A stretch of DNA of 64,000 bases from Nitrosomonadaceae bacterium (GCA_002721545.1 PBKR01000030.1:5150-69149); one strand, 5' to 3'. Counted from the stretch's first letter, positions 25,768-45,933 are shown. Made by a program: numbers and translations. Notes: generated by a model from the letters alone, not told the origin.

Positions 25768-25965
25768 CTTATTTGCCTCATATATGTGTATCTTGCCCAA
25801 AATGCATTACCTTTTTTCCTCGACCATTTATTTTTTTGAGTGAGACTATGAAAATGAAGAGGGTGATTATCTGAATTTTTGCTTTGTGCCATAAGTAGAT
25901 GTTTGATCAAGGAAGTAAATCTATTCAAATTTGGCCCTCACGTAACCTCAAATAGATGGACAGAA

Positions 25966-26580
25966 ATGAAAGTTAACAGAAACAGACTCAATCGTGCTAT
26001 TGCGCTATTTGATGAGTTAAATAGCAAAGATCCTAATCGTGAAGTCATAAATGGAAAAGAGCAATCAAAAGAGTTACTTTACGCACATAGGGTAACAACA
26101 ATGCTAAAAAGTTATGTATCAAACCCATCAGAAATATTGCAGCTAGCAGCAAGATGTCAGCATGTTCAGCGATGGAAGGTTGGCCGCAGAAGCTTCCCCA
26201 TGACAAAAACTGGTTATTATCAGTGGCGTAAAAAGCTTAGAGACTTTCATGCTCATACTGCTGAAAAGATTCTTCGTGAGGTAGGGTATGAAGAAAGTGT
26301 GATTGACCAAGTTTGCTCATTGGTTAAAAAAGAAAAGCTAAAGACAGATATTGAATCGCAGACTTTAGAGGATGTTGTTGTACTAGTATTTATAGAAAAT
26401 TATTTAGAAGATTTTATCAATAAGCATAGTAATTTTGATGAAAATAAGATAATGGATATAGTAGATAAATCATTGCGTAAGATGACAATTAAGGGGCGCC
26501 AGACAGCATTAGCTATGCTGGAATCTAAATCAGGAAGTACACTATCATGGTACACTTCTAGGTGTCAGTATCATAAGTAG
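25966..26580 (+). CDS. DUF4202 domain protein
   Basis: The core (ELLYAHRV, LAARCQHVQRW...R..FPM...GY..WR..L..FHA..A..IL...GY, LEDVVVLVFIE) matches DUF4202 from memory. ATG 25966 is preferred to the ORF-track start 25879. Confidence 0.65.
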   Translation: MKVNRNRLNRAIALFDELNSKDPNREVINGKEQSKELLYAHRVTTMLKSYVSNPSEILQLAARCQHVQRWKVGRRSFPMTKTGYYQWRKKLRDFHAHTAEKILREVGYEESVIDQVCSLVKKEKLKTDIESQTLEDVVVLVFIENYLEDFINKHSNFDENKIMDIVDKSLRKMTIKGRQTALAMLESKSGSTLSWYTSRCQYHK

Positions 26581-26996
26581 AGAGTAATAAGGGCTATATT
26601 ATTGAGTAAGTGACACTACTACCGAAAATTAATAATTATTGTGTATGTAATAGTTTTATTTATTGTTCTTTTTTTTGATCATAGAGCTTCTTCTTTTTTG
26701 ATCAATTGGTTATGTGGATGATTCTATCTATCATAGAGAATAGATGTATAATTTAGTAAGATTTTTATATGCATATTAAGGGCAAGATTTATTACGCTGT
26801 CATAAAAAGAATCAATAGAATCAAATTAATAATCTAATCGTGAGTATTAATGTAAGAAATTATCAGGATTGAAATTATGATAGTTCTATTAAGATTTAGA
26901 AAATATCAAATATATTTTATGTGATTATATTTATAACGAAAAGGCTACTTAAAAGAGATAAAAGTTATTTTTCAAATGATAGGTGTTATAAAACTT

Positions 26997-27143
26997 ATGA
27001 AATATATAAAAACAAAAAAAAATACATCTGGTTTAAGCCTTCTTATGACAATGATTGTTGTTGCAATTATTGGAATTGTAGTGGAGGTGGTACTTGTATC
27101 TTATGAGAGATCTGTTGCGCAGGAACAGGTTATTAAGAAATGA
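26997..27143 (+). pseudogene. relic of a type IV pilin-like N-terminal domain (48 codons)
   Basis: Hand translation gives MKYIKTKKNTSG/LSLLMTMIVVAIIGIVVEVVLVSYERSVAQEQVIKK*. It resembles the prepilin leader plus N-terminal helix (G/FTLIELMIVVAIIGIL) but lacks Phe1 and Glu5 and has no globular domain. Confidence 0.35.
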
Positions 27144-27298
27144 ATTTATTCTCCATGGGGTTCTGCTTTATTGTATTTTCATGCCTTCTTAATGCCGCCA
27201 TTTGTTGTATGGGAGGGCGTGATAATTAACCATATCGTGGATAGGTAAAATAAGCTGTATTTGAATACAGCTCCTATACAGAAAAAAGGTCTATATTT

Positions 27299-29806: not shown

Positions 29807-29988
29807 CCAGTATTTAATTTTTGGTGACATTATTAGGGTTTATGTTCGCTTATTTTTAATTAATCAATGATTTTAATCTACATAAAATAGATTTAAGTTA
29901 GCTTACCTCCTCCTTTTTAGTGATGTTAAAATTAGGATAGGCTGAAAATTATATAGTTTGTATTAGTATTTATGAAGGATATTAGATA

Positions 29989-32766
29989 ATGAGTTCCCAG
30001 TCTTCAACGAAGAAAATTGATGATAAGGATTTGCCGTTACGTGAAGACATTCGTATGTTGGGACGTATTCTAGGCGATACTTTACGTGAGCAAGAAGGCG
30101 TAGCTATTTTTGATTTGATTGAGAATATACGACAAACTGCTGTTCGTATACATCGCGAGCAGAATCCAGAAGCGCGTCATGATCTAAATAAACTTCTTAA
30201 TCAGTTATGTAATAGAGATACTGTAATGGTGGTCAGGGCATTTAGTTATTTGTCGCAGCTTTCTAACATTGCTGAAGATATACATCATAATCGCCGCCGC
30301 CGTGCACATCTTTGTGCGGGATCAGCGCATCAGGAAGGTAGTATTGCATTAGCTTTAGAAAGAGTAATAGAAGATGGGTCTTCTGCTAATATAGTAATTG
30401 ATTTTTTTAAAGAAACCGCAATGTCTCCAGTATTAACTGCTCACCCCACAGAAGTGCAACGAAAAAGCATATTAGACTGTCATTCAACTATAGCAAGTTT
30501 GCTAAATGAAAGGGATCGGTTACAGCTTACCCCGGAAGAATTAAAGAGTAATGAAGAGGGTTTACGTCGTGCTATCTTGACACTTTGGCAGACTCGTATG
30601 TTGCGCTTTGATCGCTTAACAGTAGATGATGAAATAAAAAATGGCCTGTCTTATTATCAACAGACTTTTCTTACTGAAGTGCCACATGTCTATGCAGAAA
30701 TCGAAGATATACTTGAAGGTAGTATGGGCAAAGATACCCCACACATTCCGCCTTTCTTGCGTATTGGTAGTTGGATAGGAGGGGACCGTGATGGAAATCC
30801 ATTCGTAAGTGATCAGACAATGCTGAGCGCAATTGAGCGTCAATCAGCTTTAGCACTTGATTATTATATGAAACAAACGCATCAAATCGGTCGTGAGCTG
30901 AGTCTGACTAATATTTTGGTTGAAGTGAGTGATGAATTGGAAGGGTTGGCTGCCTCATCCCCTGATCGAGCAGTGAGTCGTAAAGATGAGCCCTATCGGC
31001 GTGCATTAATTGGGATCTATGCACGTCTTGTTGCTACCAGTAAAAAGCTTGGTCACACAGTTACACCTCTTCGATCAGTTGACTTTGCTAAGCCATATAA
31101 AGAATGTACAGAATTTATTCATGATTTAGATATTGTTATTAATTCACTCAAATGCCATAAATCGGAATATTTGGCTAATGGATCATTACGTCATTTACGG
31201 CGAGCAGCTGAAGTTTTTGGTTTTCATCTTGCCTCATTAGATATACGCCAGCATAGTCATATTCATGAACATGTGGTAGCAGAATTGTTACAGAATGCTA
31301 CAGGAATTTCTTACTCAGAAATGAATGAAGCTGAACGTACCCAATGTTTACTTACTGAAATCAGTAATCCTCGTCCGCTATTTTCTCCTTATTTAAAGTA
31401 CTCAAAAATCAGTCAGAGTGAGATTAGTATTTTAAAGATGATGGCGGAGATCCATAGTAGGTTTGGTCATGATTCTTTGCCAAATTATATTATTTCTAAG
31501 GCTAATAGCACCTCTGATATTTTAGAAATAGCATTGTTGCTGAAGGAAGTTGGATTATTAAAAACAGGAGAGGATCCTAATTTACATCTTAATATCATTC
31601 CTTTGTTTGAGACAATTGCTGATTTACGAAACTGTATTGATATTATGGATGAATTATTTTCACTACCATATTATCGAAAATTACTTAATTCACGTGGTGA
31701 TGTGCAAGAAATAATGCTTGGGTATTCTGATAGTAATAAGGATGGTGGATTTTTAACCGCTAATTGGGAGCTTTATAAGGCCGAAACGGAATTAACAAAT
31801 CTTTTTTCTAAGCATTCAATTAAATTGAGATTATTTCATGGGCGGGGAGGTACAGTAGGACGCGGCGGAGGTCCGAGCTATCAAGCAATATTAGCTCAGC
31901 CGCCAGGCTCGGTTAATGGTCAAATACGTGTTACAGAACAAGGAGAAGTTATAAGTAGTAAATATGCTAACCCTGAAATAGGAAAGCGTAATCTTGAAAT
32001 ATTAGTGGCGGCTACTGTTGAATCTTCATTATTAAATCGGGATGTATCAGATACACATACAGAGAAATATTTTCAGGCTCTTGAGTCATTGTCACAAAGT
32101 GCATTCTCTGCATATCGGAATCTAGTATACGAAACTCCTGGTTTTGAACGTTATTTCCAGGAATCCACACCAATTAGAGAGATAGCAGGGCTGTTTATAG
32201 GAAGTCGTCCATCATCACGTAAAAAATCTGAACTTATTGAGGATTTACGAGCAATCCCATGGGTATTTAGTTGGAGTGTGAATCGCTCTACAATACCTGG
32301 TTGGTATGGCTTTGGTTCTGCTGTAGAGGAATTTATATCGTGTAAGGGTCATGGTGAGGATGGACTCAAATTATTACAAGAGATGTATAAAATTTGGCCA
32401 TTTATGCAAACGTTGTTATCTAATATGGATATGGTATTAGCGAAAACGGATATGAGTATTGCGTCAAGTTATGCTGAGTTAGTAACAGATAGTAAATTAC
32501 GTAACAAAGTATTGACTGGTATTCAAGAAGAATATGAGCGTAGTAAAAAATGGCTATTTGCTATTACAAAGCATAGCGAGCTACTCGCAGATAATCCTAC
32601 TCTTGCTCGTAGTATTCGTAACCGCACTCCATATATAGATCCATTAAATCACTTACAGATAGAATTGCTCCGTCGTTATCGTGCTGGCGATACTGATAAT
32701 TCAATAAAGCTCGCAATTCATCTAGCTATTAATGGGGTTGCTGGTTGGCTAAGAAATAGTGGCTAG
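29989..32766 (+). CDS. ppc: phosphoenolpyruvate carboxylase
   Basis: Ppc signatures VLTAHPTE, GYSDSNKDGG, FHGRGGTVGRGGGP and C-terminal LRNSG. Confidence 0.95.
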   Translation: MSSQSSTKKIDDKDLPLREDIRMLGRILGDTLREQEGVAIFDLIENIRQTAVRIHREQNPEARHDLNKLLNQLCNRDTVMVVRAFSYLSQLSNIAEDIHHNRRRRAHLCAGSAHQEGSIALALERVIEDGSSANIVIDFFKETAMSPVLTAHPTEVQRKSILDCHSTIASLLNERDRLQLTPEELKSNEEGLRRAILTLWQTRMLRFDRLTVDDEIKNGLSYYQQTFLTEVPHVYAEIEDILEGSMGKDTPHIPPFLRIGSWIGGDRDGNPFVSDQTMLSAIERQSALALDYYMKQTHQIGRELSLTNILVEVSDELEGLAASSPDRAVSRKDEPYRRALIGIYARLVATSKKLGHTVTPLRSVDFAKPYKECTEFIHDLDIVINSLKCHKSEYLANGSLRHLRRAAEVFGFHLASLDIRQHSHIHEHVVAELLQNATGISYSEMNEAERTQCLLTEISNPRPLFSPYLKYSKISQSEISILKMMAEIHSRFGHDSLPNYIISKANSTSDILEIALLLKEVGLLKTGEDPNLHLNIIPLFETIADLRNCIDIMDELFSLPYYRKLLNSRGDVQEIMLGYSDSNKDGGFLTANWELYKAETELTNLFSKHSIKLRLFHGRGGTVGRGGGPSYQAILAQPPGSVNGQIRVTEQGEVISSKYANPEIGKRNLEILVAATVESSLLNRDVSDTHTEKYFQALESLSQSAFSAYRNLVYETPGFERYFQESTPIREIAGLFIGSRPSSRKKSELIEDLRAIPWVFSWSVNRSTIPGWYGFGSAVEEFISCKGHGEDGLKLLQEMYKIWPFMQTLLSNMDMVLAKTDMSIASSYAELVTDSKLRNKVLTGIQEEYERSKKWLFAITKHSELLADNPTLARSIRNRTPYIDPLNHLQIELLRRYRAGDTDNSIKLAIHLAINGVAGWLRNSG

Positions 32767-32878
32767 ATAATATTCTTTTTATTTATTTGAATTTGAAGAT
32801 CAATGCAGTAATCAAGAAAAATAGAATAGTAAAATGTCATTGATATTTAGGCTTAACTTTTTATATATTGGAGGAGAA

Positions 32879-33235
32879 ATGGTTCGTCCATTGTTTATCT
32901 TTATATTTGTCATGGCTTTTTTTTCGTCTGTTGTAGTTGCAGAAGAGAAAAATAGTTCAAATTCTTTTATTTCAGAGTATCCCGCACATACTTGTACTCT
33001 TCCTCCTCCTAAGCCAGATGAATTGAGAGAATTTACTGGAAAAAGAGATGTAGAAAAGGAGGTAGAGAAATATAATACTTACGTAGCAGAATATAATGTT
33101 CAGGTAGATGACTATAATGCAAAAACAGAAATATATAGAAGCTGTATAAAAGAATATATAGATAGTGCAAAAAAAGATATGGAGAAAATTAATAAAAAAA
33201 TAACTGATGCAATACAGGAGGCAAATTCACAGTAA
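32879..33235 (+). CDS. hypothetical secreted coiled-coil protein
   Basis: GGAGGAG lies before ATG 32879. Signal peptide (..SSVVVA/EEK), Lys/Glu-rich remainder. No family recognised. Confidence 0.45.
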   Translation: MVRPLFIFIFVMAFFSSVVVAEEKNSSNSFISEYPAHTCTLPPPKPDELREFTGKRDVEKEVEKYNTYVAEYNVQVDDYNAKTEIYRSCIKEYIDSAKKDMEKINKKITDAIQEANSQ

Positions 33236-33397
33236 CTAAGATAGTGGAAAATTATTTGAGCTAAATGGCAGTAGTTTTACGGATTGCAATAAGGATGTTC
33301 TTGCCAGTTTAATATGCTTTCCACATACAGTAACGCATTCAAAAGTTAAGTGATCAGTGAGAAACTTGTTCCAAGAATTTTTTCGCTAAGAGAGGGG

Positions 33398-34882
33398 TTA
33401 TGTGCCACAGAAAGTTTCATGAACAATTTGTTCTGGTCGTGGTGCTCGAGCATATTTTTCCAGCGCTGCTTGGTATTCAAAGGGTTGCTTTACAACATCT
33501 ATAAGTTGATGAAAAAGATTAAAATCTTTATTCTCTACAGCTGCTTTGATAGCCTCTTCAATAAGATGGTTACGAGGGATAAAGGCGGGGTTCAGTGTAT
33601 ACATTTCAGTTTGTCTTTTTTTAGGGGACTGTGTGCTTTTTGCTAATCTTTTTTTCCAGATTTTTAGCCAATAATTGAATTTTTCAGAACAAATGATAAG
33701 AGTTCCTATATTTGTCTTAGTATCATTACCTGCTAGATCTGATAGATATCGAAAGGTTAAAGTATAATCCATTTTATCCTTAGCCATTATATCGAGTAAG
33801 TCTTTAGTGAGTTTTATATCGCCTCGCATATTATGACGTAAGCCAAGTTTCATCATCATGCCAGTTTGATATGATTCTGTTAATAAATTCATATATTTAT
33901 CAAGAGCATCTTGTGCTAATTTTATGGCTCTTTCTCGATTATTATCCAAGAAAGGAATTAAAGTCTGAGCGAGTTGCATTAAATTCCAGCATCCGATGGC
34001 AGGTTGTTTGTTATAAGCATAACGACCATTGTGATCAATAGAACTAAATACAGCACCAGGATTAAATGTATCCATAAAAGCACATGGGCCATAATCAATT
34101 GTTTCTCCAGATAGCAGCATATTATCTGTATTCATAACTCCATGAATAAAACCTATCCTTTGCCAGGAAGAAATTAGGTGTGCCTGGCTTCTAATGACAG
34201 CATCGAGCATTGCAAGAACTGGATTTTCGTTGTTGGTAGCTTCGGGATAATGCCGTTTTATAACATGATTGATTAGAATTTTTAGGCTTTCTTGATCATC
34301 TCGAGAATAGAAGAATTCGAATGTACCGATACGGATATGACTTTTTGCAATACGGACAAGAATAGCACCGGGTAAAATATTTTGTCGATATACATGATCA
34401 CCAGTTGCAGCAGCAGCTAATATCCGTGTTGTAGAAATATGCAAAGAAGCCATGGCCTCACTTACTATGTATTCACGTAAAATAGGCCCTAATGGTGCAC
34501 GACCATCGCCTCCTCGCGAATAAGGAGTAGGACCAGAGCCTTTTAATTGAAAATCATAGCGCTCTTTTTGGTTGTCTAAAATTTCACCTAGTAGAATTGC
34601 GCGACCATCACCTAATTGTGGACTCCACATACCAAATTGATGCCCAGCATAAACAGTAGCAATTGGATCCCCCCCATCTGGGACTATATTGCCTGCAATT
34701 GTTGATACTCCTTCATTGGATTCTAACCATGTTGAATCAATGTTCAGTTTCTGAGCTAACGTATGATTGATTTTGATAAGAGAAGGTGCAGAAACAGGGA
34801 CTGGATTCTGGCGCGTATAAAATTGACTAGGCAGTCGAGCATAGCTGTTATCAAAATGGATAGGGGCTTTTGTTTTTAACAA
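33398..34882 (-). CDS. selO: protein adenylyltransferase (AMPylase) SelO
   Basis: SelO/YdiU pseudokinase features (FDNSYARLP, QLGDGRA, HGVMNTDNM). TTG start. Confidence 0.9.
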   Translation of the reverse strand: MLKTKAPIHFDNSYARLPSQFYTRQNPVPVSAPSLIKINHTLAQKLNIDSTWLESNEGVSTIAGNIVPDGGDPIATVYAGHQFGMWSPQLGDGRAILLGEILDNQKERYDFQLKGSGPTPYSRGGDGRAPLGPILREYIVSEAMASLHISTTRILAAAATGDHVYRQNILPGAILVRIAKSHIRIGTFEFFYSRDDQESLKILINHVIKRHYPEATNNENPVLAMLDAVIRSQAHLISSWQRIGFIHGVMNTDNMLLSGETIDYGPCAFMDTFNPGAVFSSIDHNGRYAYNKQPAIGCWNLMQLAQTLIPFLDNNRERAIKLAQDALDKYMNLLTESYQTGMMMKLGLRHNMRGDIKLTKDLLDIMAKDKMDYTLTFRYLSDLAGNDTKTNIGTLIICSEKFNYWLKIWKKRLAKSTQSPKKRQTEMYTLNPAFIPRNHLIEEAIKAAVENKDFNLFHQLIDVVKQPFEYQAALEKYARAPRPEQIVHETFCGT

Positions 34883-35276
34883 AGTTTTTATTAATTTTGC
34901 TAATAGGAGGAATGATCAAAATTATGGGCAGTATTTTGACGGCTAGTTTCATTTATGTAGGATGTATATATATTAAAGATGTTAGTTCGATGGCTCATAT
35001 GGAGCAGTATTTAGAAACTATTTTATTTAGTATATTTGTCAAATAAATGATAGAAATTATAGAAGAAACAGTACATTTTATACAAGTGATGTAAGAATTT
35101 TTGTATGAAAATGATCATATAGTTGTCTATTAGGGTTGCTATATTGCTCATAGATTTCATTTTTTGAGAGTAGTGACTAGCTATACTTCCATTGTTTTTT
35201 AACCTACCCCGATATATATTTTTATGATTTTGTTTCATTCTATTATTCGATAGGTAGTTTTAAAATAATAGAGTAT

Positions 35277-36278
35277 TTAATCTTTTAATTCCGCATAATT
35301 ATGCATATGCGCTTTTCTAATTATTTCCATTTCTTCATTAAATTTGTTTGCTACTTTTTTTCCTTGTAATTTTACAAATTCTAGGAATGCAAGTGTTACA
35401 GGAGACAATTTTTTATTCTTTGGGTGCACTAGATACCAGTATCGATGGATAGGAAGCCCTTGGACATCTAATATTGCAATTGGCCCCGATGTTCCTTCCA
35501 ATGCTAGTGAATGCATAGATAATATTGATACACCTAGTTCTGCTACAACTGCCTGCTTAAGCGCCTCATTACTGGCAAGTTCCATATGACCGTCTGGTGT
35601 TTTCAGTCCTTTGCTTGCAAATAGACGGTTGATGGCATCACGCGTACCTGAGCCTGGTTCACGAAGAATAAATGGTTCTTCAAGAAAGCGTTCGAGTGGA
35701 ATATTCGGTACGCCTGCTAATGGATGATTACAGCTTGCCATTGCGACTAATGGATTTGGTATGAACGGGTAAGATATAACATCAAGTTCCGGTGGTGGCT
35801 CGCCTAGAATGCATAGATCATCTTCATATCCAGTAAGGCGTTCTAGAATGTGTTCTCGATTTTCAATACTCAAGGAGAAATCAACATCCGGATGCAATCG
35901 GCCAAATTGACCAAGTAGATCTGGTACAAGGTATTGAGAAGAAGTAATGATAGCTAGACGTAAGTGCCCACATTTGACCCCTTTAATATCCGATATTTTT
36001 GCTTCAAGGTTAGTAATATTATCAAATATTTCCTGGCATATTGTATATACTTCGTTACCTGCTTCAGTTAGGTGAATTCGTATTCCTCTCTGCTCAAATA
36101 GCGGTAAACCAACGGTGTCAGCAAGTTTCTTGAGCTGCATTGATACAGTGGGCTGAGCTAAAAATAGCTCTTCTGATGCGCGTGTAAAGCTATTGTTGCG
36201 TGCCACAGACTCAAAGACTTGAAGTTGCCGTAAAGTTATGTGTCGCGCAAGGTTGCTTACTAAATTTGTAGACTTCAA
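35277..36278 (-). CDS. cbbR: LysR-family transcriptional regulator of the RuBisCO/carboxysome operon
   Basis: LysR wHTH (ITLRQLQVFESVARNNSFTRASEELFLAQPTVSMQLKKL). Divergent from cbbL, the classical CbbR arrangement. TTG start. Confidence 0.8.
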   Translation of the reverse strand: MKSTNLVSNLARHITLRQLQVFESVARNNSFTRASEELFLAQPTVSMQLKKLADTVGLPLFEQRGIRIHLTEAGNEVYTICQEIFDNITNLEAKISDIKGVKCGHLRLAIITSSQYLVPDLLGQFGRLHPDVDFSLSIENREHILERLTGYEDDLCILGEPPPELDVISYPFIPNPLVAMASCNHPLAGVPNIPLERFLEEPFILREPGSGTRDAINRLFASKGLKTPDGHMELASNEALKQAVVAELGVSILSMHSLALEGTSGPIAILDVQGLPIHRYWYLVHPKNKKLSPVTLAFLEFVKLQGKKVANKFNEEMEIIRKAHMHNYAELKD

Positions 36279-36742: not shown

Positions 36743-38155
36743 ATGGCAGGAAAAACATACAAAGCTGGCGTCAAGGATTATCGTGATAGTTACTGGACAC
36801 CAAACTATATCCCCCTCGATACAGACTTGCTAGCTTGCTTTAAAATTGTAGCACAGGAGGGAGTTCCACATGAAGAGGCTGCTGCTGCAGTTGCTGCGGA
36901 ATCTTCTACAGGCACATGGACAACTGTGTGGACTGATTTGCTAACTGACATGGAATATTATAAGGGTCGTGCTTACCGGATTGAGCAGGTTCCAGGTGAT
37001 GATTCTGCATTCTATGCATTTGTTGCTTATCCTATTGATTTATTTGAAGAAGGTTCAGTTGTTAATGTGTTGACCTCATTGGTTGGTAATGTATTTGGTT
37101 TTAAAGCTATACGTAGTTTGCGACTAGAAGATGTACGCTTTCCGATCGCCTTTGTTAAGACCTGTGGTGGCCCACCAAATGGTATACAGGTGGAGCGTGA
37201 TCGCATGAATAAATATGGCCGTGCTTTGCTAGGTTGTACTATCAAGCCAAAGCTTGGCTTGTCTGCAAAGAACTATGGTATGGCTGTATATGAGTGCCTA
37301 CGTGGTGGTCTTGATTTTACTAAGGATGATGAGAATGTTAATAGTCAGCCATTTATGCGTTGGCGCCATCGTTTTGAATTTGTGATGGAAGCAGTTTTAA
37401 AGTCTCAAGCTGAAACTGGAGAACGTAAAGGTCACTATCTGAATGTAACTGCAGCAACGCCAGAAGAGATGTATAAAAGAGCTGAATTTGCAAAAGAGTT
37501 GGGTGCTCCAATTATAATGCATGATTATTTAACTGGTGGGCTCTGTGCTAATACTGGCTTAGCAAACTGGTGTCGTGATAATGGAATATTATTGCATATT
37601 CACCGTGCCATGCATGCTGTATTAGATCGTAATCCCTATCATGGGATCCATTTCCGAGTATTAACTAAGGTTTTAAGGTTGTCAGGTGGTGATCATTTAC
37701 ACTCTGGTACTGTAGTTGGTAAGTTAGAAGGGGATAGAAATGCAACCCTAGGCTGGATTGATTTGATGCGTGAATCATTTGTTCCAGAGAATAGAGAACG
37801 TGGTGTTTTCTTTGATCAAGATTGGGGTTCTATGCCTGGTGTGATACCAGTTGCTTCAGGCGGCATTCATGTTTGGCATATGCCTGCTCTCGTTAATATA
37901 TTTGGTGATGATTCCTGTTTACAATTTGGAGGGGGAACACTTGGCCATCCATGGGGTAATGCTGCAGGTGCCACTGCAAACCGAGTAGCCCTAGAAGCTT
38001 GTACTGATGCACGAAATCAGGGGCGTCCTGTAGAGCGTGAAGGGAAAGAAGTGTTAACCGAAGCTGCACAGCATTCACCTGAACTAAAAATTGCCATGGA
38101 GACATGGAAAGAAATTAAATTTGAATTCGATACTGTAGACAAGATTGATACATAA
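36743..38155 (+). CDS. cbbL: RuBisCO large subunit, form IA
   Basis: Full-length form I large chain ([22 protein letters not shown] with the carbamylated Lys, [11 protein letters not shown]). Carboxysome-linked, hence form IA. Confidence 0.97.
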
Positions 38156-38197: not shown

Positions 38198-38536
38198 ATG
38201 GATGAAGTCAGACCGTATAAAGCAACTGAACGTAGAGGAGAGACATTCTCATATCTGCCGCCATTCACACCTGAGAAGATTCGTAAGCATATTGCTTATA
38301 TGATTTCTCAAGGCTGGAATCCGGCTATTGAACATACTGAACCAGAAAAATTATTTTCTAATTTTTGGTATCTATGGAAGCTACCATTCTTTGGTGAGAA
38401 ATCAGTTGAAAAAGTAATGGCAGAAATAGATGCATGTCATCGTGCAAATTCAGGACATCTTGTACGTTTAACCGGATTTGATAATTACACACAATGCCGT
38501 GGCACAGCTTTTATTGTTCATCGTGGTGGACGTTAA
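38198..38536 (+). CDS. cbbS: RuBisCO small subunit
   Basis: Typical 112-aa form IA small chain (ETFSYLPP, QGWNPAIEH, FWYLWKLPFFG). Confidence 0.95.
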   Translation: MDEVRPYKATERRGETFSYLPPFTPEKIRKHIAYMISQGWNPAIEHTEPEKLFSNFWYLWKLPFFGEKSVEKVMAEIDACHRANSGHLVRLTGFDNYTQCRGTAFIVHRGGR

Positions 38537-38623: not shown

Positions 38624-40768
38624 ATGAGTAAAAATATATCAAAATCTGACACCTTATTTGACGTCCAAACTGGACGTGATGCATCTCGTATGAGGCGTGC
38701 ACAACTAGTAGCTGGAAAAGTAGGCTTGCCACCTATTAAAGAACGTGTGCGTACAAATGAGCATAATGCTAAAAATAAAGAAGTGATTATTGAGCCTACA
38801 GATATATTGCCATCAGCTGTTATTGAAACTAAAAGCACTGATAAGACGTCATTAGTAGGCCGTGATGCATCCCGTGCTCGACGTGCAACATTAATCCAAG
38901 GTAAAAATGGAATATTGCAGTCTGCTGCAATTGAAACGAACTCAGGTTCTGTTTTGGATGAGGCTGATGAATGTACTGGTCAAGATGATTGCTCTTGTAG
39001 TGAGGAAAAAGAAGACCGATTATTTGCAAAGCCTATTCGTAGTGGAAGCAAAAATAAAGGGAACAGAAACAAAGGAAACCAAGCAAGAGTCAGGGATATT
39101 ACGACGCGGCCAAGTGGTCGTTTGCGTCAAGCTAATCCGGTTAAGTATCCACCTAAAGTGGCTGAAAGTGAAAGCTATGCAGGTCACAAAGTGACTGGAG
39201 TTCGTATTGGTCGGGGAGAGAATGTTACAGGAGATGAGCGCGGATCTTCCGTTCAAGTAACTGGTAATCAGTATATTGGAAAAGAGACTGGTTACAATCC
39301 TCGAGAAGGTGGTATTAAAGTTGGGGCTAGTAAAACATCTGGTGGACAAACTGTAACTGGGTCACAGGTACGTAGTAAGATAAGTATTACAGGAGATGAG
39401 TCTAATCCTGAATTAAATATTACTGGAGCGGCTGATCAGGAGCTGAATGATGATCTGTTGCAACATCGGGAGCAGGGGAGCGATGCTGCACAGACTCAGT
39501 TTCAACGGCAAAATGATCCGCATGGTCATACTGTATTTGGCGCCAATCTTGGGCGCTCTGTCAAAACAATTGGTTCTCGCAATCGCAACATTGAATATAG
39601 TAAAGAAGAATCTATGGGAGGACGTCCAATTACGGGTACTGCAGTTGGTCGAAGTGAACTAACAACCGGTGATGAAAGTGGATCTTGTCATGATATTACA
39701 GGTAGCCAGTATTTAATGCCGGCAGTAAAGCAGCCATTATGTGAAACTAATGGGCGCGAAGTACCAAAGAAAGTTGGTATTAGCCATACGTTGTACGGTA
39801 CACGTACAACTGGAACCCAAGTTGGCCAGCGTATACACCAATCTGGAAATATTACTGGTACAGCAGAAGAGGGTACTTGCCAAGATATTTCTGGTACTGA
39901 ATATTCCAGTGCTGAAGAGTATAAAAGCCACTGTGGAATAACACCTACTCGAGCTGGTAATGAAAATGGGGCTAATGCTTCAACATGGGGCGGGCAATAT
40001 GTGACAGGTGTAGATATAGAGCATAATGAACGCGTAACAGGAGATGAACCTGGCGCATGTAATGCGATTACTGGCACACCTTATGCGGGACCAAATCAGT
40101 ATCAGACTTTTTGTTCTGTTGAGAGCGAGAATAAAGCTGAGCAGTTGGTTTCACCAGAAATGGCATCAGGTAATCATGTTAGCGGTGATATTACGATCAA
40201 CGTTGATAAGGTTTCAGGTACACAACGAGGCAGTGAGAAAGATATTACGGGCACATCGTATTATTGTGCTAATCCCGATAAAGATATTAGTACAGATGTA
40301 ATGAAGAATCTTCAAAAAATAAACAACAGCTTTAGTGTAAAGACTCCACAACGAGAATATCAGGAACTAGCTGGTTTTGATGCTATCAATGCTCCAACTG
40401 CAGAAAGTCGTATTACTGGTGCGTTTTCGGTTGGTGAAGGAAAGGTTACTGGTAATAACGAATTTCGTTTTCACCCTAGATCAACGGCTGAGGCTAATGC
40501 ACGTGTAACGGGAGAAGGACGCGTGGAGGGTAGGACTATAACTGGTAGCGCGTGGACATCAAAAGATAATGTAACTGGAACCGAAGGTCATATTGCTGCT
40601 GAGCGTAATCCAAGTGAGCGGCAAGGTAGCTCACATGCTTTTGCCAACTCAAAACTATTTAAGGATAAGGGTAGCAAACCTGAGCCTACGCATCATGTTA
40701 CAGGGATGGTAGGTTGGTCACCTAAAACCTCTGCTCGTATTACATACTCAGGCGGAGCACATGGTTAA
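38624..40768 (+). CDS. csoS2: carboxysome scaffold protein CsoS2
   Basis: Basic, repeat-rich 714-aa protein. Two N-terminal RuBisCO-binding-type motifs (GRDASRMRRAQLVAGKVG and GRDASRARRATLIQGKNG), many [VI][TS]G triplets with Cys-containing middle repeats (SCHDITGSQY, TCQDISGTEY, ACNAITGTPY), and C-terminal VTG repeats. Confidence 0.9.
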   Translation: MSKNISKSDTLFDVQTGRDASRMRRAQLVAGKVGLPPIKERVRTNEHNAKNKEVIIEPTDILPSAVIETKSTDKTSLVGRDASRARRATLIQGKNGILQSAAIETNSGSVLDEADECTGQDDCSCSEEKEDRLFAKPIRSGSKNKGNRNKGNQARVRDITTRPSGRLRQANPVKYPPKVAESESYAGHKVTGVRIGRGENVTGDERGSSVQVTGNQYIGKETGYNPREGGIKVGASKTSGGQTVTGSQVRSKISITGDESNPELNITGAADQELNDDLLQHREQGSDAAQTQFQRQNDPHGHTVFGANLGRSVKTIGSRNRNIEYSKEESMGGRPITGTAVGRSELTTGDESGSCHDITGSQYLMPAVKQPLCETNGREVPKKVGISHTLYGTRTTGTQVGQRIHQSGNITGTAEEGTCQDISGTEYSSAEEYKSHCGITPTRAGNENGANASTWGGQYVTGVDIEHNERVTGDEPGACNAITGTPYAGPNQYQTFCSVESENKAEQLVSPEMASGNHVSGDITINVDKVSGTQRGSEKDITGTSYYCANPDKDISTDVMKNLQKINNSFSVKTPQREYQELAGFDAINAPTAESRITGAFSVGEGKVTGNNEFRFHPRSTAEANARVTGEGRVEGRTITGSAWTSKDNVTGTEGHIAAERNPSERQGSSHAFANSKLFKDKGSKPEPTHHVTGMVGWSPKTSARITYSGGAHG

Positions 40769-40892
40769 TGTTATTAAGGTTATTAATGGTTAAATCAGAG
40801 CAGACAAAAGAACAAGATATGAGTAAGAACGTGTATGGACGCTCACAGTTTTGTGTTTCTCTGCAAGGAAGTAATCATACGGAATCAATACA

Positions 40893-41165
40893 ATGAAAAT
40901 TTGCCAAGTAGAAGAGACATTAGTAGCGACAGCACGTATTGGACAGCTTGGTACCCGCCGCTTGTTGGTGGTTAGGGAAAGAGATAGCGCTAGTAGGCAG
41001 GTAGCAGTTGATCCAGTTGGTTGTAAGGAAGGTGACTGGGTAATAGTTGCTGGTAGTTCAGCTGCCCGAGCTGCTGCAGGTAGTAATGATTATCCAAGTG
41101 ATTTCACTATTGTTGGGATTATCGATTATTGGGAAGAAGAATTAAATAGTGGAAAAAAGAAGTAG
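40893..41165 (+). CDS. csoS4A: carboxysome vertex (pentamer) protein CsoS4A, EutN/CcmL family
   Basis: Close to CsoS4A as I recall it from Halothiobacillus (MKI.QVE.TLV...RI, RQVAVD..GC..GDWV, GSSAAR.AAGS..YPSD.TI.GIID.W). Confidence 0.85.
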   Translation: MKICQVEETLVATARIGQLGTRRLLVVRERDSASRQVAVDPVGCKEGDWVIVAGSSAARAAAGSNDYPSDFTIVGIIDYWEEELNSGKKK

Positions 41166-41170
41166 GTTAA

Positions 41171-41425
41171 ATGGATATACAACGTGTTGTGCGAGATTTG
41201 GTTACGACAAAGCGTAATTCTTGGTTAGCTTCCAAATCATTACGTGTCGTTGAAGATGCTTCGGGTACTTTGAGTGTTGCGTTGGATCCTGTTGGCTGTA
41301 AGCCGGGCGATTTTGTCATTACTATGGGGGGAACAGCTGCAAGATTAGCTACTGATAATCCAAAAATTACTACCGATCTAACTATCGGCGGGATTATTGA
41401 TCATTGGAGCGAAGATGATTGGTAA
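41171..41425 (+). CDS. csoS4B: carboxysome vertex protein CsoS4B, EutN/CcmL family
   Basis: CsoS4B-like sequence (LRV.EDA.G..SVA.DP.G...G..V....G.AAR, TDLTIGGIIDHW). Confidence 0.85.
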   Translation: MDIQRVVRDLVTTKRNSWLASKSLRVVEDASGTLSVALDPVGCKPGDFVITMGGTAARLATDNPKITTDLTIGGIIDHWSEDDW

Positions 41426-41518: not shown

Positions 41519-41800
41519 ATGGCAAATGAAAAAATGGGTATAGCGTTAGGGATGATTGAAACGCGTGGCTTAGTTCCGGCAATTGAGGCAGCTGATGCCA
41601 TGACTAAAGCATCTGAAGTTCGTCTTATTGGGCGGCAATTTGTTGGTGGTGGTTATGTCACCATATTGGTTCGTGGTGAAACTGGTGCTGTGAATGCTGC
41701 AGTTCGTGCTGGTGCTGATGCTTGTGAACGTGTTGGTGATGGTTTAGCAGCTGCACATATAATTGCTCGTCCACATACAGAAGTAGAACAGATTTTATAA
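41519..41800 (+). CDS. csoS1: carboxysome shell hexamer protein CsoS1 (BMC-H), copy 1
   Basis: Canonical BMC domain GIALGMIETRGLVPAIEAADAMTKASEVRLIGRQFVGGGYVT..VRGETGAVNAAVRAGADA. Confidence 0.95.
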   Translation: MANEKMGIALGMIETRGLVPAIEAADAMTKASEVRLIGRQFVGGGYVTILVRGETGAVNAAVRAGADACERVGDGLAAAHIIARPHTEVEQIL

Positions 41801-41818: not shown

Positions 41819-42151
41819 ATGGCAAACGAAAAATTGGGTATAGCATTAGGGATGATCGAAACTCGTGGTTTGGTTCCAGCAGTAGAAGCAGCTGATGCTA
41901 TGACTAAAGCATCAGAGGTTCGTCTTATTGGGCGGCAATTTGTTGGTGGTGGTTATGTCACCATATTGGTTCGTGGTGAAACTGGTGCTGTGAACGCAGC
42001 AGTTCGTGCTGGTGCCGACGCTTGTGAACGCGTTGGTGATGGTTTGGCTGCAGCACATATTATTGCGCGCCCTGATAGTGAAATAGAACCGATTCTTACG
42101 GTTAAAGCTACTGCTCAAGGTGGTCGTGATAGTGAAGTTACTGGTAAATAG
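41819..42151 (+). CDS. csoS1: carboxysome shell hexamer protein CsoS1 (BMC-H), copy 2 with C-terminal extension
   Basis: Near-identical to copy 1 over about 90 aa, plus a 17-aa tail (TVKATAQGGRDSEVTGK) reminiscent of CsoS1B-type extensions. Confidence 0.95.
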   Translation: MANEKLGIALGMIETRGLVPAVEAADAMTKASEVRLIGRQFVGGGYVTILVRGETGAVNAAVRAGADACERVGDGLAAAHIIARPDSEIEPILTVKATAQGGRDSEVTGK

Positions 42152-42228
42152 AGCTGATACAGTTTAGTTTTTTATAATAGTATAAAATATTTTAATAATA
42201 TAGTTATACCAAGTAAATTATGTTTATG

Positions 42229-42263
42229 TAGTAGTTGTTGAATTACAATTCTAGCAACTACTA
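42229..42263 (+). terminator. imperfect long hairpin after the csoS1 genes (possible intra-operon attenuator or RNA-stability element)
   Basis: TAGTAGTTG..TGAATT-AC-AATTC..CAACTACTA: 9-bp outer stem plus 5-6-bp inner stem. The following T-tract is weak (TATTATT). Confidence 0.3.
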
Positions 42264-42386
42264 TATTATTCAGTACAGTTTATTTAAGACAGTAATTAAT
42301 ATATAAAAAATTTGTTACTAGGATTTAGTTGTATTAGAAAATATCTATTTGGTACAGCATAAATATCAAATAGGAGGAGTTTCGAT

Positions 42387-43787
42387 ATGAGTGGGAGTCT
42401 TATAAAATATTCAAGGAATACTGAGAATGCACCAAAAAGTTCCGTTTCTACACAAACTGTAGCTTTCTCTCATTATAATAATGTTTCAGCTCAGTTACCT
42501 GTAGATCCTAAAACTGGAGAAATTGTACCTGGTGATGTACAGGCACAGGCAAGGCAATGCTTAATAAATATTAAAGCAATTGTAGAAAGCATCGGTCATG
42601 TTATGGACGATGTTGTTAAAATTAATATATTTCTTAAGAATATTTCAGATATCTACGCTGTAGATGCAGTATACACACCATTTTTTCAAAGCTATTTTCC
42701 TACTCGTACAGCAGTTGGGGTTGTTGATTTACCTATGAGTAATGCTTTAGTACAAATTGATGCAGTGATTTCAAATGGTGAAGGTACGCCTTCGACTTCA
42801 TTTTCACCCTCAGAAGAACCTTGTGATCTTATTCCACCATTTGGTTTGCATAATAATCAGGCACAGAATTTTATGCATAATCAAATGAGAGTTAGGGTTG
42901 AGCGTAATCCTGTGATCAATGTTCCAATAAGCCAGCAACCAGGAAAATTGGTAAGAAATACAGAGAATGCACCAAAAAATCCTATATCGTCTCAAAATGT
43001 AGCTTTTTCTCATTACAGTAATATTTCAGCTCAATTACCAATTGACCCAAAATCAGGCCAATTGGTAGCTGGTGGTATAAAAGAACAGACAGGGCAATGT
43101 CTAAAAAATATTAAGTCAATTTTAGAAAGTATTGATGTACCTTTTGATGATATTGTGAAGGTAACTATTTTTCTTAGGAATCTTTCAGATATTCAGGCTG
43201 TGAATGAAGTTTACACAACATTTTTTCCAGATTCTGGTATTGCTAGAGCTGTAGCTTATACTCCTGCACGGACAATATTTGTTGTCTCAGGTTTGCCAAT
43301 GGATTCTTTAGTACAAGTTGATGTAGTTATCTCACATGGAGATGGTACTCCTCCTCAAGCTGTTGAAGATAGGCATGGACTTATAATCAGAGCAAGTAAT
43401 ACGGAGGGTGCCCCAAGAAATTCTATACACACACAAACGGTAGCCTTTTCTCATTATAATCATATTGCAGCTCAATTACCTATTGACCCTAAATCAGATC
43501 AGATAATAGCAGGCGGTGTAAAAGAGCAAGCTGAGCAGTGCTTAAGAAATATCAAAGCAATTGTGGAAAGTGTTGACCATGTTATGGATGATATAGTTAA
43601 AATAAATATTCAACTTAAGAATATTGCAGATATTGGTATTGTAAATACAATTTATACTACCTTTTTCAAAGGCGACCTTCCTGCAAGAACAGTAGTTGGC
43701 GTTTCTGCTATCTCTATGGGTGCTTTGGTACAAATTGATGCAGTTGTATCTAATGGTGAGGGAACTCCGCCAAATTTTGCAAAATAG
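42387..43787 (+). CDS. single-chain triple RidA/YjgF/YER057c (Rid family) domain fusion protein
   Basis: GGAGGAG RBS. Three tandem Rid domains, each about 130 aa (aa 5-135, 186-322, 331-461). Each runs from NTE(N/G)AP...VAFSHY...AQLP.DPK...QC(L).NIK.I(V/L)ES to LVQ(I/V)D.V(I/V)S.G(E/D)GTP. Each retains the Arg of the F/T/L-P-x-R-T motif (R107, R295, R434). Confidence 0.8.
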   Translation: MSGSLIKYSRNTENAPKSSVSTQTVAFSHYNNVSAQLPVDPKTGEIVPGDVQAQARQCLINIKAIVESIGHVMDDVVKINIFLKNISDIYAVDAVYTPFFQSYFPTRTAVGVVDLPMSNALVQIDAVISNGEGTPSTSFSPSEEPCDLIPPFGLHNNQAQNFMHNQMRVRVERNPVINVPISQQPGKLVRNTENAPKNPISSQNVAFSHYSNISAQLPIDPKSGQLVAGGIKEQTGQCLKNIKSILESIDVPFDDIVKVTIFLRNLSDIQAVNEVYTTFFPDSGIARAVAYTPARTIFVVSGLPMDSLVQVDVVISHGDGTPPQAVEDRHGLIIRASNTEGAPRNSIHTQTVAFSHYNHIAAQLPIDPKSDQIIAGGVKEQAEQCLRNIKAIVESVDHVMDDIVKINIQLKNIADIGIVNTIYTTFFKGDLPARTVVGVSAISMGALVQIDAVVSNGEGTPPNFAK

Positions 43788-43944
43788 TAGTACAGGCTAA
43801 CAATACTTTATTGAGCTAGGACCTCAATAACCATCAGAAGAATTAAGTTATATTAGTTTAGTGCTATAGCATTATTGAAGTTTCTGGCATCATTTAATAT
43901 TTTTAATACGGTTAATGTATTATTAATATACTCTAGGGACAGTA

Positions 43945-44199
43945 ATGGATAAAGAAAATGTTGAGTACTGGACTACCAAGGGTAATCCACCTGGTCTGTT
44001 TAGACGATTCGAATTCGAAAACTATAATAAACTTCGAATTTTCTTGGATCGTCTTGCCGATTTATCTAAGGAGAAAGAATATTATCCGGATATCAGTTTT
44101 GGAGTAACTTATGCCAATATTACTATATATGCTAGTGATGCAAAAGAATTAAGTGTTGAGGATAAAGCGTTTGCACATAGTGTAGATAAGTTAATTTAG
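43945..44199 (+). CDS. pterin-4a-carbinolamine dehydratase-like protein (alpha-carboxysome RuBisCO assembly factor, acRAF-like)
   Basis: 84-aa PCD fold pattern (F.F.N......FL.R.A.L....EYYPDISF....ANITI). The catalytic HHP of true PCDs is replaced by YYP, as described for acRAF. Located in the cso locus. Confidence 0.7.
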   Translation: MDKENVEYWTTKGNPPGLFRRFEFENYNKLRIFLDRLADLSKEKEYYPDISFGVTYANITIYASDAKELSVEDKAFAHSVDKLI

Positions 44200-44214: not shown

Positions 44215-44853
44215 ATGGATACTGGAGTAATAGCAGTTGCAAATCAGAAGGGAGGAGTCGGTAAGACGACTATAGCCATGAATATGGCTGCTGGTTTAAT
44301 TCGCCGCGGGAGTTGTATTGTAATTGATTCAGATCCTCAAGGCTCTGCTACATTGTGGACAGAGTTATCAGGAGATCCGAGTAGATTTCCAGTAGACGTA
44401 GTTTTAGCAGAGAATAAATTAGATAAACAGGTAGCGCAGTTGCAAAGAAAATTTGATTACATAATTATTGATAGTCCACCAGAGATTAAATCCGGTTCTA
44501 TAATGAGTGTAATGTCAATTGCTCAAATTTTACTTGTACCTTTATTGCCATCACCTATGGACTTATGGTCGAGCACTCGTATAGAGGAATTAATTAAACG
44601 TGCGAAGAAAAAAAATCCAAAGATATTAGCATTTATTTTGCTTAATCAAATTGAGCCTAGAAGTGCAATGTCTCGCGGGATGGATGAGGCATTACAGGAA
44701 ATTGATATTCCTGTATTACGTAATCGTTTAGGTCGTCGTGCAAGCTACCGGACATCAGCTCTAGAAGGGTGTAGTGTTTATGATCTTGGCTATCGTGGGC
44801 GAGTCGCATCTGAAGAAATTGATGGTATTATTGATGAGGTGTTAGGACTATGA
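44215..44853 (+). CDS. mcdA: ParA-type ATPase, carboxysome positioning protein McdA-like
   Basis: Deviant Walker A NQKGGVGKTT with signature Lys, Walker B IIIDSPP. Located in the cso locus directly upstream of a McdB-like gene. Confidence 0.8.
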   Translation: MDTGVIAVANQKGGVGKTTIAMNMAAGLIRRGSCIVIDSDPQGSATLWTELSGDPSRFPVDVVLAENKLDKQVAQLQRKFDYIIIDSPPEIKSGSIMSVMSIAQILLVPLLPSPMDLWSSTRIEELIKRAKKKNPKILAFILLNQIEPRSAMSRGMDEALQEIDIPVLRNRLGRRASYRTSALEGCSVYDLGYRGRVASEEIDGIIDEVLGL

Positions 44854-45167
44854 GTAAAGGGATTTTTTCTAAGAAATTGGCTGCTAGTACACGTAAGGCT
44901 AAAAAAATTATTCCAGAAGTGAAACCAAGATCTGCATCAACATTAGTTACTAACCAAAAGAAAGCTAAGAAAATTATTCCAGAAGTGAAACTAAAATCTG
45001 CATCATCATTAGTTGTTAATCGAAAAAGAGCTAAAAAAATTATTTCAGATGTGAATCTAAAAGCTGTATTATTACGGGAATTAACATCTCCAAGTGATAT
45101 TTTAAATCCTACTGATTCAAAGCTTCTTTTAAATCAGCAATATGAGGAACGAATCTGGCCTGATTGA
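44850..45167 (+). CDS. mcdB: McdB-like disordered, repeat-containing partner of McdA
   Basis: 4-nt ATGA overlap with mcdA. 105 aa, very basic, with 22-aa tandem repeats (KAKKIIPEVK.(R/K)SAS(T/S)LV.N.K). Trp is third from the C-terminus (..ERIWPD), matching the published hallmark of alpha-McdB proteins. Confidence 0.65.
   Translation: MSKGIFSKKLAASTRKAKKIIPEVKPRSASTLVTNQKKAKKIIPEVKLKSASSLVVNRKRAKKIISDVNLKAVLLRELTSPSDILNPTDSKLLLNQQYEERIWPD
44898..45070 (+). repeat. 66-bp tandem repeat, about 2.6 copies, inside mcdB
   Basis: Copies start at 44898, 44964 and 45030 (each GCTAA(A/G)AAAATTATT(C/T)CAGA). Copies 1 and 2 differ at roughly ten positions. Confidence 0.85.
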
Positions 45168-45235: not shown

Positions 45236-45586
45236 TCAGTCCTTATTGCTAACCTCAACGTGTTGGATTTTTCCATTGTAGACTATTACATATTCTTTGC
45301 CAGATCGTTGTACCACTTCTCCATCAAGGGTTATGCCAGTGAAGGTGAAATCAAAAAGAACTATTCCCGGCTTAACCTCTTTGATGTTATGCACATTCCA
45401 TCCTAAAGTGTCGAAACCGGAGAAAAACTTTGTTTGCATATCCATAATTTGATCAGAGCCAAGGAAAATATCTTTATTCGCTGAGCTATAGGTGCTTGAA
45501 GATGTGAATAGTTTCTTAATTTCTGTTAGCTTTCCTTTATTAGAAAGTTCAAAGTATTTTTTTGCTAGCTGAACAGTATCAGTCAT
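45236..45586 (-). CDS. NTF2-like (SnoaL-like) domain protein
   Basis: 116 aa with the alpha+beta cone pattern typical of NTF2-family proteins (AKKYFEL...G.L..I..LF..., ...V.FDFTF.G...DGE...R.G.EY....NGKI). Convergent with the cso operon. Confidence 0.55.
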   Translation of the reverse strand: MTDTVQLAKKYFELSNKGKLTEIKKLFTSSSTYSSANKDIFLGSDQIMDMQTKFFSGFDTLGWNVHNIKEVKPGIVLFDFTFTGITLDGEVVQRSGKEYVIVYNGKIQHVEVSNKD

Positions 45587-45857: not shown

Positions 45858-45933
45858 TGGTGGGTCGTGGGAGGATCGAACTCCCGACCTTCGGATTAAG
45901 AGTCCGTTGCTCTACCAGCTGAGCTAACGACCC
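45858..45933 (-). tRNA. tRNA-Lys (anticodon CUU)
   Basis: The reverse complement is GGGTCGTTAGCTCAGCTGGTAGAGCAACGGACTCTTAATCCGAAGGTCGGGAGTTCGATCCTCCCACGACCCACCA. Anticodon loop CT-CTT-AA. Confidence 0.9.

Follow-up and report, generated by a model that had tools for sequence, protein, structure and literature searches.

The α-carboxysome operon carried by a 64,000-nt stretch of DNA from a Nitrosomonadaceae bacterium (the window, along which all coordinates below are counted) lacks csoSCA, the gene for the carboxysomal carbonic anhydrase (CA), and the best explanation, which we hold to be likely, is a genuine, ancient and clade-wide loss of this gene in an uncultured planktonic lineage of the Nitrosomonadaceae. 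Carboxysome models take the internal CA as indispensable. At this locus the remaining cso genes are present and apparently functional, and csoSCA is missing. The absence of csoSCA from its canonical slot, the csoS2 stop, the csoS4A start at 40893 and the 124 bp between them had been reported in a preliminary description of the window, and all were borne out by open reading frame (ORF) listing and Pfam scans. The junction is composed of the following features.

38624..40768 (stop included), + strand: csoS2, carboxysome scaffold of 714 aa (PF12288, E 4e-68)
40769..40892, unstranded: csoS2-csoS4A gap of 124 bp, the csoSCA slot of typical loci (from the coordinates of the flanking genes)
40786..40896, + strand: vestigial csoSCA mini-ORF of 36 codons, MVKSEQTKEQDMSKNVYGRSQFCVSLQGSNHTESIQ* (open frame and similarity to CsoSCA ends)
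40893..41165, + strand: csoS4A, pentameric vertex protein (PF03319)

Gene calls were made by ORF listing combined with Pfam scans, and the scan for CAs took in all real-looking ORFs of at least 100 aa. No CsoSCA, β-, α- or γ-CA or CaMKII_AD-type family was found among these ORFs, and PF08936, PF20686 and PF20687 had no match anywhere in the window. With the CsoSCA proteins of two typical loci (L028 and L029) as tblastn queries, neither the window nor any related locus gave a hit better than E = 0.5. The earlier statement that no ORF of the window resembles a CA is supported.

The carboxysome loci compared are denoted by L-numbers, and relatives were read as the locus plus 10-kb flanks. In four typical loci used for comparison (L028, L029, L036 and L037, the first two from Burkholderiales metagenome-assembled genomes, MAGs), the slot is occupied by a csoSCA of 1.58 kb. 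A CsoS2-alignment scan with one genome per species returned 13 further loci, labelled Nitrosomonadaceae, Nitrosomonadales or Betaproteobacteria in 12 cases and Gammaproteobacteria in one; four of them are closed chromosomes of 2.05–2.43 Mb (OY760140.1, OZ252054.1, OZ250175.1 and OZ242188.1). Additional metagenome contigs were reached through look-ups of the triple-RidA protein encoded at the locus (see below). In every species locus spanning the junction, the four closed chromosomes included, csoS2 and csoS4A are separated by 43–130 bp, and the further metagenome contigs show the same junction. Loci of other species that share it number 17, the closed chromosomes among them. The triple-RidA gene of the window locus was seen on 23 independently assembled contigs, and the three listed contigs that extend to csoS2 (L001, L002 and L006) have the same junction as the window. 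A relative with an intact csoSCA in the slot, which the preliminary description had named as a finding that would refute the absence, was found nowhere in the clade among the loci compared, and no CA gene was found within 10 kb of any clade locus. The traceable contigs come from marine (Tara) metagenomes and, in one case, from a Lake Biwa MAG (L013). For the window itself an identical contig exists in the marine MAG GCA_002448775.1, and the precomputed calls of that contig supplied the domains of cbbR and the identity of SMC.

It might be argued that csoSCA exists in the organism and was lost from the contig by assembly or binning, an option that PMC9239080 left open for draft freshwater MAGs. 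We regard this as extremely improbable, as the same junction is found on independent contigs from different samples and assemblers and in the four closed long-read chromosomes, and as the gap has diverged between species in both sequence and length (43–130 bp) with an in-frame relic kept.

This relic changes the earlier picture of the slot as a spacer: the length of 124 bp stands, the emptiness does not, since the gap holds a mini-ORF derived from csoSCA. The mini-ORF starts at 40786 (ATG GTT AAA...); an alternative in-frame ATG at 40768 would extend it to 42 codons. Its TGA overlaps the start codon of csoS4A as ATGA (40893–40896), and in typical loci the csoSCA stop overlaps the csoS4A start by the identical arrangement. 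None of the 17 loci examined has lost the open frame. The relic has 36 codons in six marine-branch loci and 36 and 37 codons in L012 and L019, respectively, while the remaining loci have versions of 11 codons (MIKSLYTESMQ*) or 8 codons (MIKSLSIQ*), again shortened in frame.

The similarity to CsoSCA extends to both ends. The N-end of the L012 relic, MIKLLRTRQQNAGIRMYGKPVEFDVA, resembles the CsoSCA N-ends of L029, MITATRTKRQRHVGGFYGPADYGVA, and L037, (V)INAMRNKRSNSLGVYNPADFDYA, with scores of 40–41, where shuffled sequences average ~16 (p = 0.0003); for the N-end of the window relic the values were p = 0.0007 (L029) and p = 0.04 (L037). The relics of L012 and L019, which have decayed less, match more strongly. 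At the nucleotide level, the relic and csoSCA could be aligned from the csoS2 stop through the ribosome-binding site to the first ten codons. The 3′ end of the relic, CGGAATCAATACAATGAAAAT, matches CGGAGTCAAGACAATGAAAAT of typical loci, CGGA(A/G)TCAAxACAATGAAAAT being common to both, and the C-ends of the relics (..HTESIQ*, ..YTESMQ*) parallel those of CsoSCA (..HTAESMQ*, ..KSESRQ*). Because the N-end, the nucleotide alignment, the C-end and the ATGA overlap all match typical csoSCA, the gap is a csoSCA fossil. Judged from the aligned ends, the comparison shows that an in-frame internal deletion took out about 490 csoSCA codons, and that what remains is the csoSCA ribosome-binding site, the start codon, the first ~25 and the last ~6 codons and the ATGA overlap.

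The six marine relic copies differ by 43 nonsynonymous and 8 synonymous codon changes with no third-position excess, from which it follows that the relic peptide as such is not conserved. In the marine-lineage relics most of the basic residues of the CsoSCA N-end are gone. A conserved micro-protein, for instance a free Rubisco-binding peptide, is not supported by this pattern. All six long marine relics nonetheless stay open, an outcome matched in 2.4% of simple simulations; as far as codon differences can tell, the alignment shows a peptide evolving almost neutrally in a frame that is kept open. The relic most likely persists only as a translated leader, which would bring ribosomes to the start of csoS4A. 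The last codons of the relic also contain the ribosome-binding site of csoS4A, and we infer that csoS4A is translationally coupled to the genes upstream through the relic frame.

The other genes of the operon, which the preliminary description had called intact, have their Pfam matches and are conserved across loci. They are as follows.

35277..36278, - strand: cbbR, LysR-type regulator, divergent from cbbL (ORF list; HTH_1 and LysR_substrate in the precomputed calls of the identical contig)
36743..38155, + strand: cbbL, Rubisco large subunit (PF00016 and PF02788, E 1e-136)
38198..38536, + strand: cbbS, Rubisco small subunit (PF00101)
41171..41425, + strand: csoS4B, pentameric vertex protein (PF03319)
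41519..41800, + strand: csoS1, hexameric shell protein with the pore motif FVGGGY (PF00936; translation)
41819..42151, + strand: second copy of csoS1, with a C-terminal extension (PF00936)
43945..44199, + strand: acRAF, pterin-4a-carbinolamine-dehydratase-like Rubisco assembly factor (PF01329)
44215..44853, + strand: mcdA, ParA-type carboxysome positioning ATPase (PF13614 and PF01656)
44850..45167, + strand: McdB-like partner protein (position after mcdA in all loci; lysine-rich repeats, C-terminal W-P-D)

Identity to the window across the loci is 91–97% for CbbL, 94–100% for CsoS1 (80% in one locus) and 84–97% for CsoS4A, with CsoS2 reaching only 52–85% across those same loci. From these comparisons the rest of the operon is clearly under purifying selection across species. 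Two N-terminal repeats of the Rubisco-binding type, GRDASRxRR, can be read in the translation of the window csoS2; the NCBIfam models of CsoS2 match this gene, but under their curated cut-offs. The McdB-like protein matched no family, and its name rests on position and on the lysine-rich repeat with C-terminal Trp. Given that no other carboxysome gene is damaged and that all are conserved between species, the cells presumably continue to build shells filled with Rubisco.

The two csoS1 copies of the window are near-identical in tandem over their first ~85 codons, for which reason the same terminator-like hairpins were reported twice. Among related loci the copy number of csoS1 ranges from one up to three or four, and L016 has a second csoS4A-like copy.

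If the entire locus were decaying junk, csoSCA would merely have been the first gene lost; one essential component is gone, and no bicarbonate transporter adjoins the locus in the clade, unlike in the outgroups. This reading seems very unlikely to us, as every other gene is full length in every species sampled with high amino-acid identity, and neither the csoS1 pore motif nor the CsoS2 repeats are damaged. Moreover, the loss is older than the split of lineages whose CsoS2 proteins are ~52% identical, yet nothing else has decayed.

Several points weigh against the account of an ancient loss with a functional operon left behind. The window relic reaches p < 0.01 against only one of the four outgroup CsoSCA N-ends, which we ascribe to the poor conservation of these N-ends. 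The open frame of the relic could be luck, the simulation giving p of about 0.02 and the star phylogeny overstating independence. The production of carboxysomes is deduced from conservation of the sequences. A csoSCA or another CA may be encoded elsewhere in the genome, the searches having covered the window and the locus flanks. Finally, the deletion of csoSCA in Halothiobacillus leads to a high-CO2-requiring phenotype (cited in PMC12646314), and this counts against an organelle that simply combines a tight shell with the lack of a CA.

The preliminary description had treated the absence of csoSCA as unprecedented. The phenomenon is already known, having been published in PMC9164163, PMC9239080, PMC12628692 and PMC12646314, and the present clade is an additional lineage. 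New here are the csoSCA fossil with its kept coupling to csoS4A and a modified 3x-RidA that travels with the operon. In 2022, 'No csoSCA' loci were reported in Nitrosospira multiformis, all Thiomicrospira, two Thiomicrorhabdus species and Pseudonocardia sp. N23 (PMC9164163); the proposals made there were a shell permeable to CO2 or the recruitment of a CA from elsewhere. Similar to those loci, the clade conserves cbbLS, csoS2, csoS4AB, csoS1 and acRAF, lacks csoSCA and derives from a typical locus, and one of the known cases, Nitrosospira multiformis, belongs to the same family. Nevertheless, the clade is apparently a separate lineage, as no named Nitrosospira multiformis protein occurs among the CsoS4A relatives of at least 70% identity; it differs also by the short csoSCA relic (36 codons in the window) and the accompanying 3x-RidA, the paper mentioning no RidA gene.

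In the carboxysomes of Thiomicrospira an iota-class CA takes the place of CsoSCA, and the degraded csoSCA was named csoSX (Wieschollek et al. 2024, as cited in PMC12628692 and PMC12646314). The csoSX locus appears comparable in that a csoSCA remnant, best preserved in its N-terminal part, separates csoS2 from csoS4A; csoSX is a sizeable gene with a weak PF08936 match, and the relic of the clade is far more reduced, with about 30 codons, which match no family. Another difference from Thiomicrospira is that no iota-CA candidate was found in or near the window locus.

With the canonical cso operon (Halothiobacillus neapolitanus; L028 and L029) the window shares its gene order and the ATGA coupling into csoS4A. 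L028 and L029, with CsoS4A proteins 83–85% identical to that of the window, are the nearest loci outside the clade. The order in these nearest typical loci is cbbLS-csoS2-csoSCA (527–529 aa)-csoS4AB-csoS1-bfr-acRAF-mcdA, with DAB or SulP genes alongside; the window differs by the lack of CsoSCA, of the bacterioferritin-like gene and of adjoining DAB/SulP genes and by the presence of 3x-RidA. Another close published system is the Great Lakes Nitrosospira ecotype NspGL1 (Podowski et al. 2022, PMC9239080), whose cso operon was reported without csoS3/csoSCA 'in our draft assembly'. It is likewise a streamlined planktonic member of the Nitrosomonadaceae with form IA Rubisco and a cso operon without the expected CA, and it is probably this clade's freshwater branch, for which the Lake Biwa locus L013 may be compared. 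The absence in NspGL1 was reported as a possible problem of the draft assembly, while in the present case the closed chromosomes and the relic ORF show that the gap is real.

How CO2 reaches Rubisco in such a carboxysome can be answered in several ways, which overlap; the remainder of the probability falls to artefact or decay. The favored option, to which we give slightly less than an even chance, is that a CA unrelated to CsoSCA and encoded outside the window would serve the carboxysome. There are precedents for a CA other than CsoSCA in the iota-CA of Thiomicrospira and in CcaA of β-carboxysomes.

Alternatively, the carboxysome could be free of CA. Small, slow-growing, streamlined cells that have no bicarbonate pump would gain nothing from an internal CA, and CO2 would enter by diffusion, the shell being retained for packaging of Rubisco, its protection or McdAB-based inheritance. 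No DabA, SbtA or SulP transporter was found by the Pfam scans in the 64-kb window, nor any DAB, SbtA or SulP gene within 10 kb of the clade loci, while typical outgroups have DAB or SulP genes adjoining; this absence covers the window and the locus flanks. The genomes are small (2.0–2.4 Mb), and by our own rough estimate the diffusion of CO2 into a sub-micron cell exceeds the demand by orders of magnitude. Nevertheless, the shell proteins show no obvious change towards CO2 permeability, FVGGGY being kept, and the same point was made for other lineages in PMC9164163. Both CsoS4 vertex proteins are retained, and the sole csoSCA-less lineage tested so far carries another CA (PMC12628692). On balance we regard a CA-free carboxysome as possible, though somewhat unlikely. 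A high-CO2 or acidic niche, offered earlier as an explanation, found no support: the traceable contigs are from the sea or from Lake Biwa, and the published freshwater relatives were sampled from the hypolimnion (PMC9239080).

A SnoaL_2-like gene lies 68 bp past mcdB, at 45236-45586 (-), and could be thought to encode an iota-type CA as in Thiomicrospira. The iota-CAs fall in the same broad NTF2-like fold class as SnoaL_2-like proteins. The Pfam match to SnoaL_2 is barely over the cut-off (27.8 bits). The gene is found at the locus flank in the window species only and is missing from all sister-species flanks, and a 79%-identical homologue adjoins TspO, with transhydrogenase genes on two of the four contigs listed and no cso genes. 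The sequence matches no solved iota-CA in the Protein Data Bank (PDB). The structural model, with a predicted local distance difference test score (pLDDT) of 96, is closest to limonene epoxide hydrolases, SnoaL cyclases and ketosteroid isomerases, and no iota-CA occurs among the best 50 structural matches. An iota-CA role of this gene is thus most improbable, and the candidate was rejected on the lack of a PDB sequence match, the species-restricted position, the unlinked homologue and the fold. The protein of 116 aa, encoded convergently with mcdB, belongs to a family of ~80 members from diverse aquatic bacteria.

A protein of ~210 aa at freshwater-branch loci was also considered as a CA and rejected, as it gives no CA signal and is absent from the window. 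This protein (~202–220 aa; L007 11653-12294, L027 11476-12084, L025 948-1610, L013/L018/L019 ~5960-6625) has an HxD...H pattern and, in place of any confident family match, a weak one to an Fe/2-oxoglutarate halogenase family (E 0.1). It occupies two alternative positions at these loci, after the RidA gene or upstream of cbbR.

The 3x-RidA gene has been the constant companion of the locus in this clade. The class of 3x-RidA was named and left uncharacterised by Niehaus et al. (2015, PMC4433059), and neither a function nor a genomic association was found published for it. The features of the window that concern this gene are the following.

42363..43851, + strand: inserted 3x-RidA cassette, within the ancestral csoS1-acRAF spacer (breakpoints against L009 and L010)
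42387..43787, + strand: 3x-RidA ORF of 466 aa with three Rid domains (three PF01042 stretches; TIGR00004)
42834..42944, + strand: disordered insertion between Rid domains 1 and 2, residues ~150-186 (alignment; AlphaFold2 model)
34883..35276, unstranded: former 3x-RidA site, SelO-cbbR gap (aligns to the SelO-RidA3 and RidA3-cbbR gaps of L010)

Wherever the contig is long enough, the gene adjoins the csoSCA-less locus: this holds for 10 of 10 genome-collection loci, for the window species and for every other contig found via the triple-RidA protein. Three positions were observed: directly after mcdB with a gap of ~30 nt in the freshwater and other branch, upstream of cbbR in most marine species, and between csoS1 and acRAF in the window species. 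The typical csoSCA-bearing outgroup loci have no 3x-RidA within 10 kb. The gene is not a universal companion of csoSCA loss, as the independent csoSCA-less locus of Pseudonocardia has none within 10 kb.

The move into the operon could be traced by breakpoint mapping. The ancestral csoS1-acRAF spacer survives in two halves, 42152-42362 and 43852-43944, with 87% identity to L009, and the cassette between them consists of a 24-nt ribosome-binding region, the ORF and a 64-nt tail. Comparison with the closest relative, L010, revealed that the old SelO-cbbR site still carries the former RidA upstream region (34883-35099). The cassette having 24 nt upstream and the old upstream region having been left behind, it follows that the gene entered the operon without ~215 nt of upstream sequence, and these ~215 nt are where the promoter would be expected in L010. 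Around the cassette Rfam gave only tRNAs and no regulatory RNA, and in a consensus scan promoter-like sites were not in excess and no terminator-like site bounded the cassette.

The 466-aa protein contains three PF01042 stretches and scores 263 bits with TIGR00004 (cut-off 106). The AlphaFold2 model shows three RidA folds with a predicted template-modelling score (pTM) of 0.77 and template-modelling (TM) scores of 0.85–0.9 to solved RidA chains. As in the 3x-RidA of PMC4433059, three RidA domains are fused into a presumed covalently linked trimer with a putative substrate-binding Arg in all three; what sets the carboxysome-linked copies apart is a disordered stretch with a conserved short motif, inserted between domains 1 and 2. 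This insertion of 37–85 residues is present in all carboxysome-linked copies and absent from the 421-aa copies of heterotrophs, and its core, N-x-Q-x-Q-N-F-M-[RH], is conserved. It is predicted to be disordered (pLDDT 25–35) except for a short helix at residues 158-165. This pattern is the signature of a putative short linear interaction motif. Among known binding peptides, no likeness of the insertion was found to the N-terminal region of CsoSCA, the N-terminal repeats of CsoS2 or McdB (p > 0.27).

Among the residues that serve RidA in catalysis or substrate binding, the one that we take to be Arg105 of E. coli RidA is present in all three domains (PTRT, PART, PART). Tyr17, again by the numbering that we assume for E. 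coli RidA, is replaced by Ser, Ser and His, and Glu120 by Gln in all three domains. The 421-aa copies, from Vibrio, Marinobacter, Desulfobulbaceae, Laribacter and others, have domain cores 66–78% identical to those of the carboxysome-linked copies, which indicates that the core activity is not carboxysome-specific. In heterotrophs 3x-RidA stands alone amid unrelated neighbours, and the family is widespread and extremely conserved; no conserved context was found, as Vibrio, Laribacter and a 2.8-Mb metagenome genome all differ in their neighbours.

With these data in hand, 3x-RidA might be a carboxysome-associated partner of this clade, recruited via the insertion motif, acting as a repair or accessory enzyme or supplying the missing activity. 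The proposal draws on the adjacency to every sufficiently covered csoSCA-less locus of the clade at three positions, on the transfer of the window-lineage ORF into the operon with only 24 nt upstream, on the insertion whose conserved core is confined to carboxysome-linked copies, and on the lack of the gene beside typical outgroup loci. All this evidence comes from one clade and thus from one evolutionary event. The GST gene and the ~210-aa protein likewise keep their adjacency through circular-permutation-like rearrangements, tandem duplication followed by loss could yield adjacency neutrally, the Pseudonocardia locus does without the gene, and the insertion is unlike the peptides compared above. 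We know of no Rid protein with CA activity, which was also counted against the proposal. We therefore consider the partnership a tentative and rather unlikely reading. A bolder form, that 3x-RidA, twice drawn into or onto the operon, would be an unrecognised component of CA-less α-carboxysomes recruited via N-x-Q-x-Q-N-F-M and, at its boldest, a metal-free bicarbonate-to-CO2 enzyme, is improbable; should it be true, non-homologous replacement of CsoSCA, first met in the iota-CA of Thiomicrospira, would have a second case. That 3x-RidA itself supplies the missing CA-like activity is very improbable. A mundane possibility is that 3x-RidA may be a metabolite-repair enzyme co-regulated with autotrophic flux in streamlined genomes.

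The question of how a carboxysome copes without CsoSCA was raised in 2022 and has been answered for one genus, Thiomicrospira, in the form of an iota-CA. The present clade extends it to uncultured planktonic ammonia oxidisers of ocean and lake metagenomes, in which closed chromosomes show the loss to be real and the molecular fossil shows its route. The modified 3x-RidA offers a concrete protein for experiments, and for the uncharacterised 3x-RidA family no consistent genomic association was known before. Should the CA have no replacement, the clade would be a natural test of the value of a carboxysome without a CO2-concentrating mechanism, which bears on the building of minimal carboxysomes in crops.

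Some further observations were made at the edges of the loci. A fusion of NUDIX and TMP-TENI (thiamine-phosphate-synthase-like) domains adjoins α-carboxysome loci in Burkholderiales, Nitrosomonadaceae and Pseudonocardia (L027 1189-2145, L028 13988-14953, L029 12032-12973, L030/L031 11613-12617), and smaller NUDIX/TMP-TENI pieces occur in L007 (606-1163) and L008 (20255-20596). This recurrence suggests an unrecognised accessory function. Just downstream of the window locus a tRNA gene is located at 45861-45933 (-). In some strain variants of the window species a phage-type integrase (L002 13699-14901, L006 7818-9020) follows the SnoaL-like gene in place of the PBP/QueF genes, and the downstream end of the locus is accordingly an integration hot spot.

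On the upstream side, ~10 kb of the window (24889-34882) separate the GST gene from cbbR and contain a tRNA, a lipoprotein, DUF4202, an MscS-type channel, phosphoenolpyruvate (PEP) carboxylase, a 133-aa secreted protein and SelO. In the sister species L008, L011 and L017, the RidA gene and cbbR come immediately after GST. The window arrangement thus places PEP carboxylase, which uses bicarbonate, 3.5 kb from the Rubisco operon. SelO is present as a 225-aa fragment on a public MAG contig (L001 690-1367), partly aligned at 100% to the 494-aa ORF of the window (33398-34882), a discrepancy that points to the deposited record differing locally by assembly or by a frameshift.

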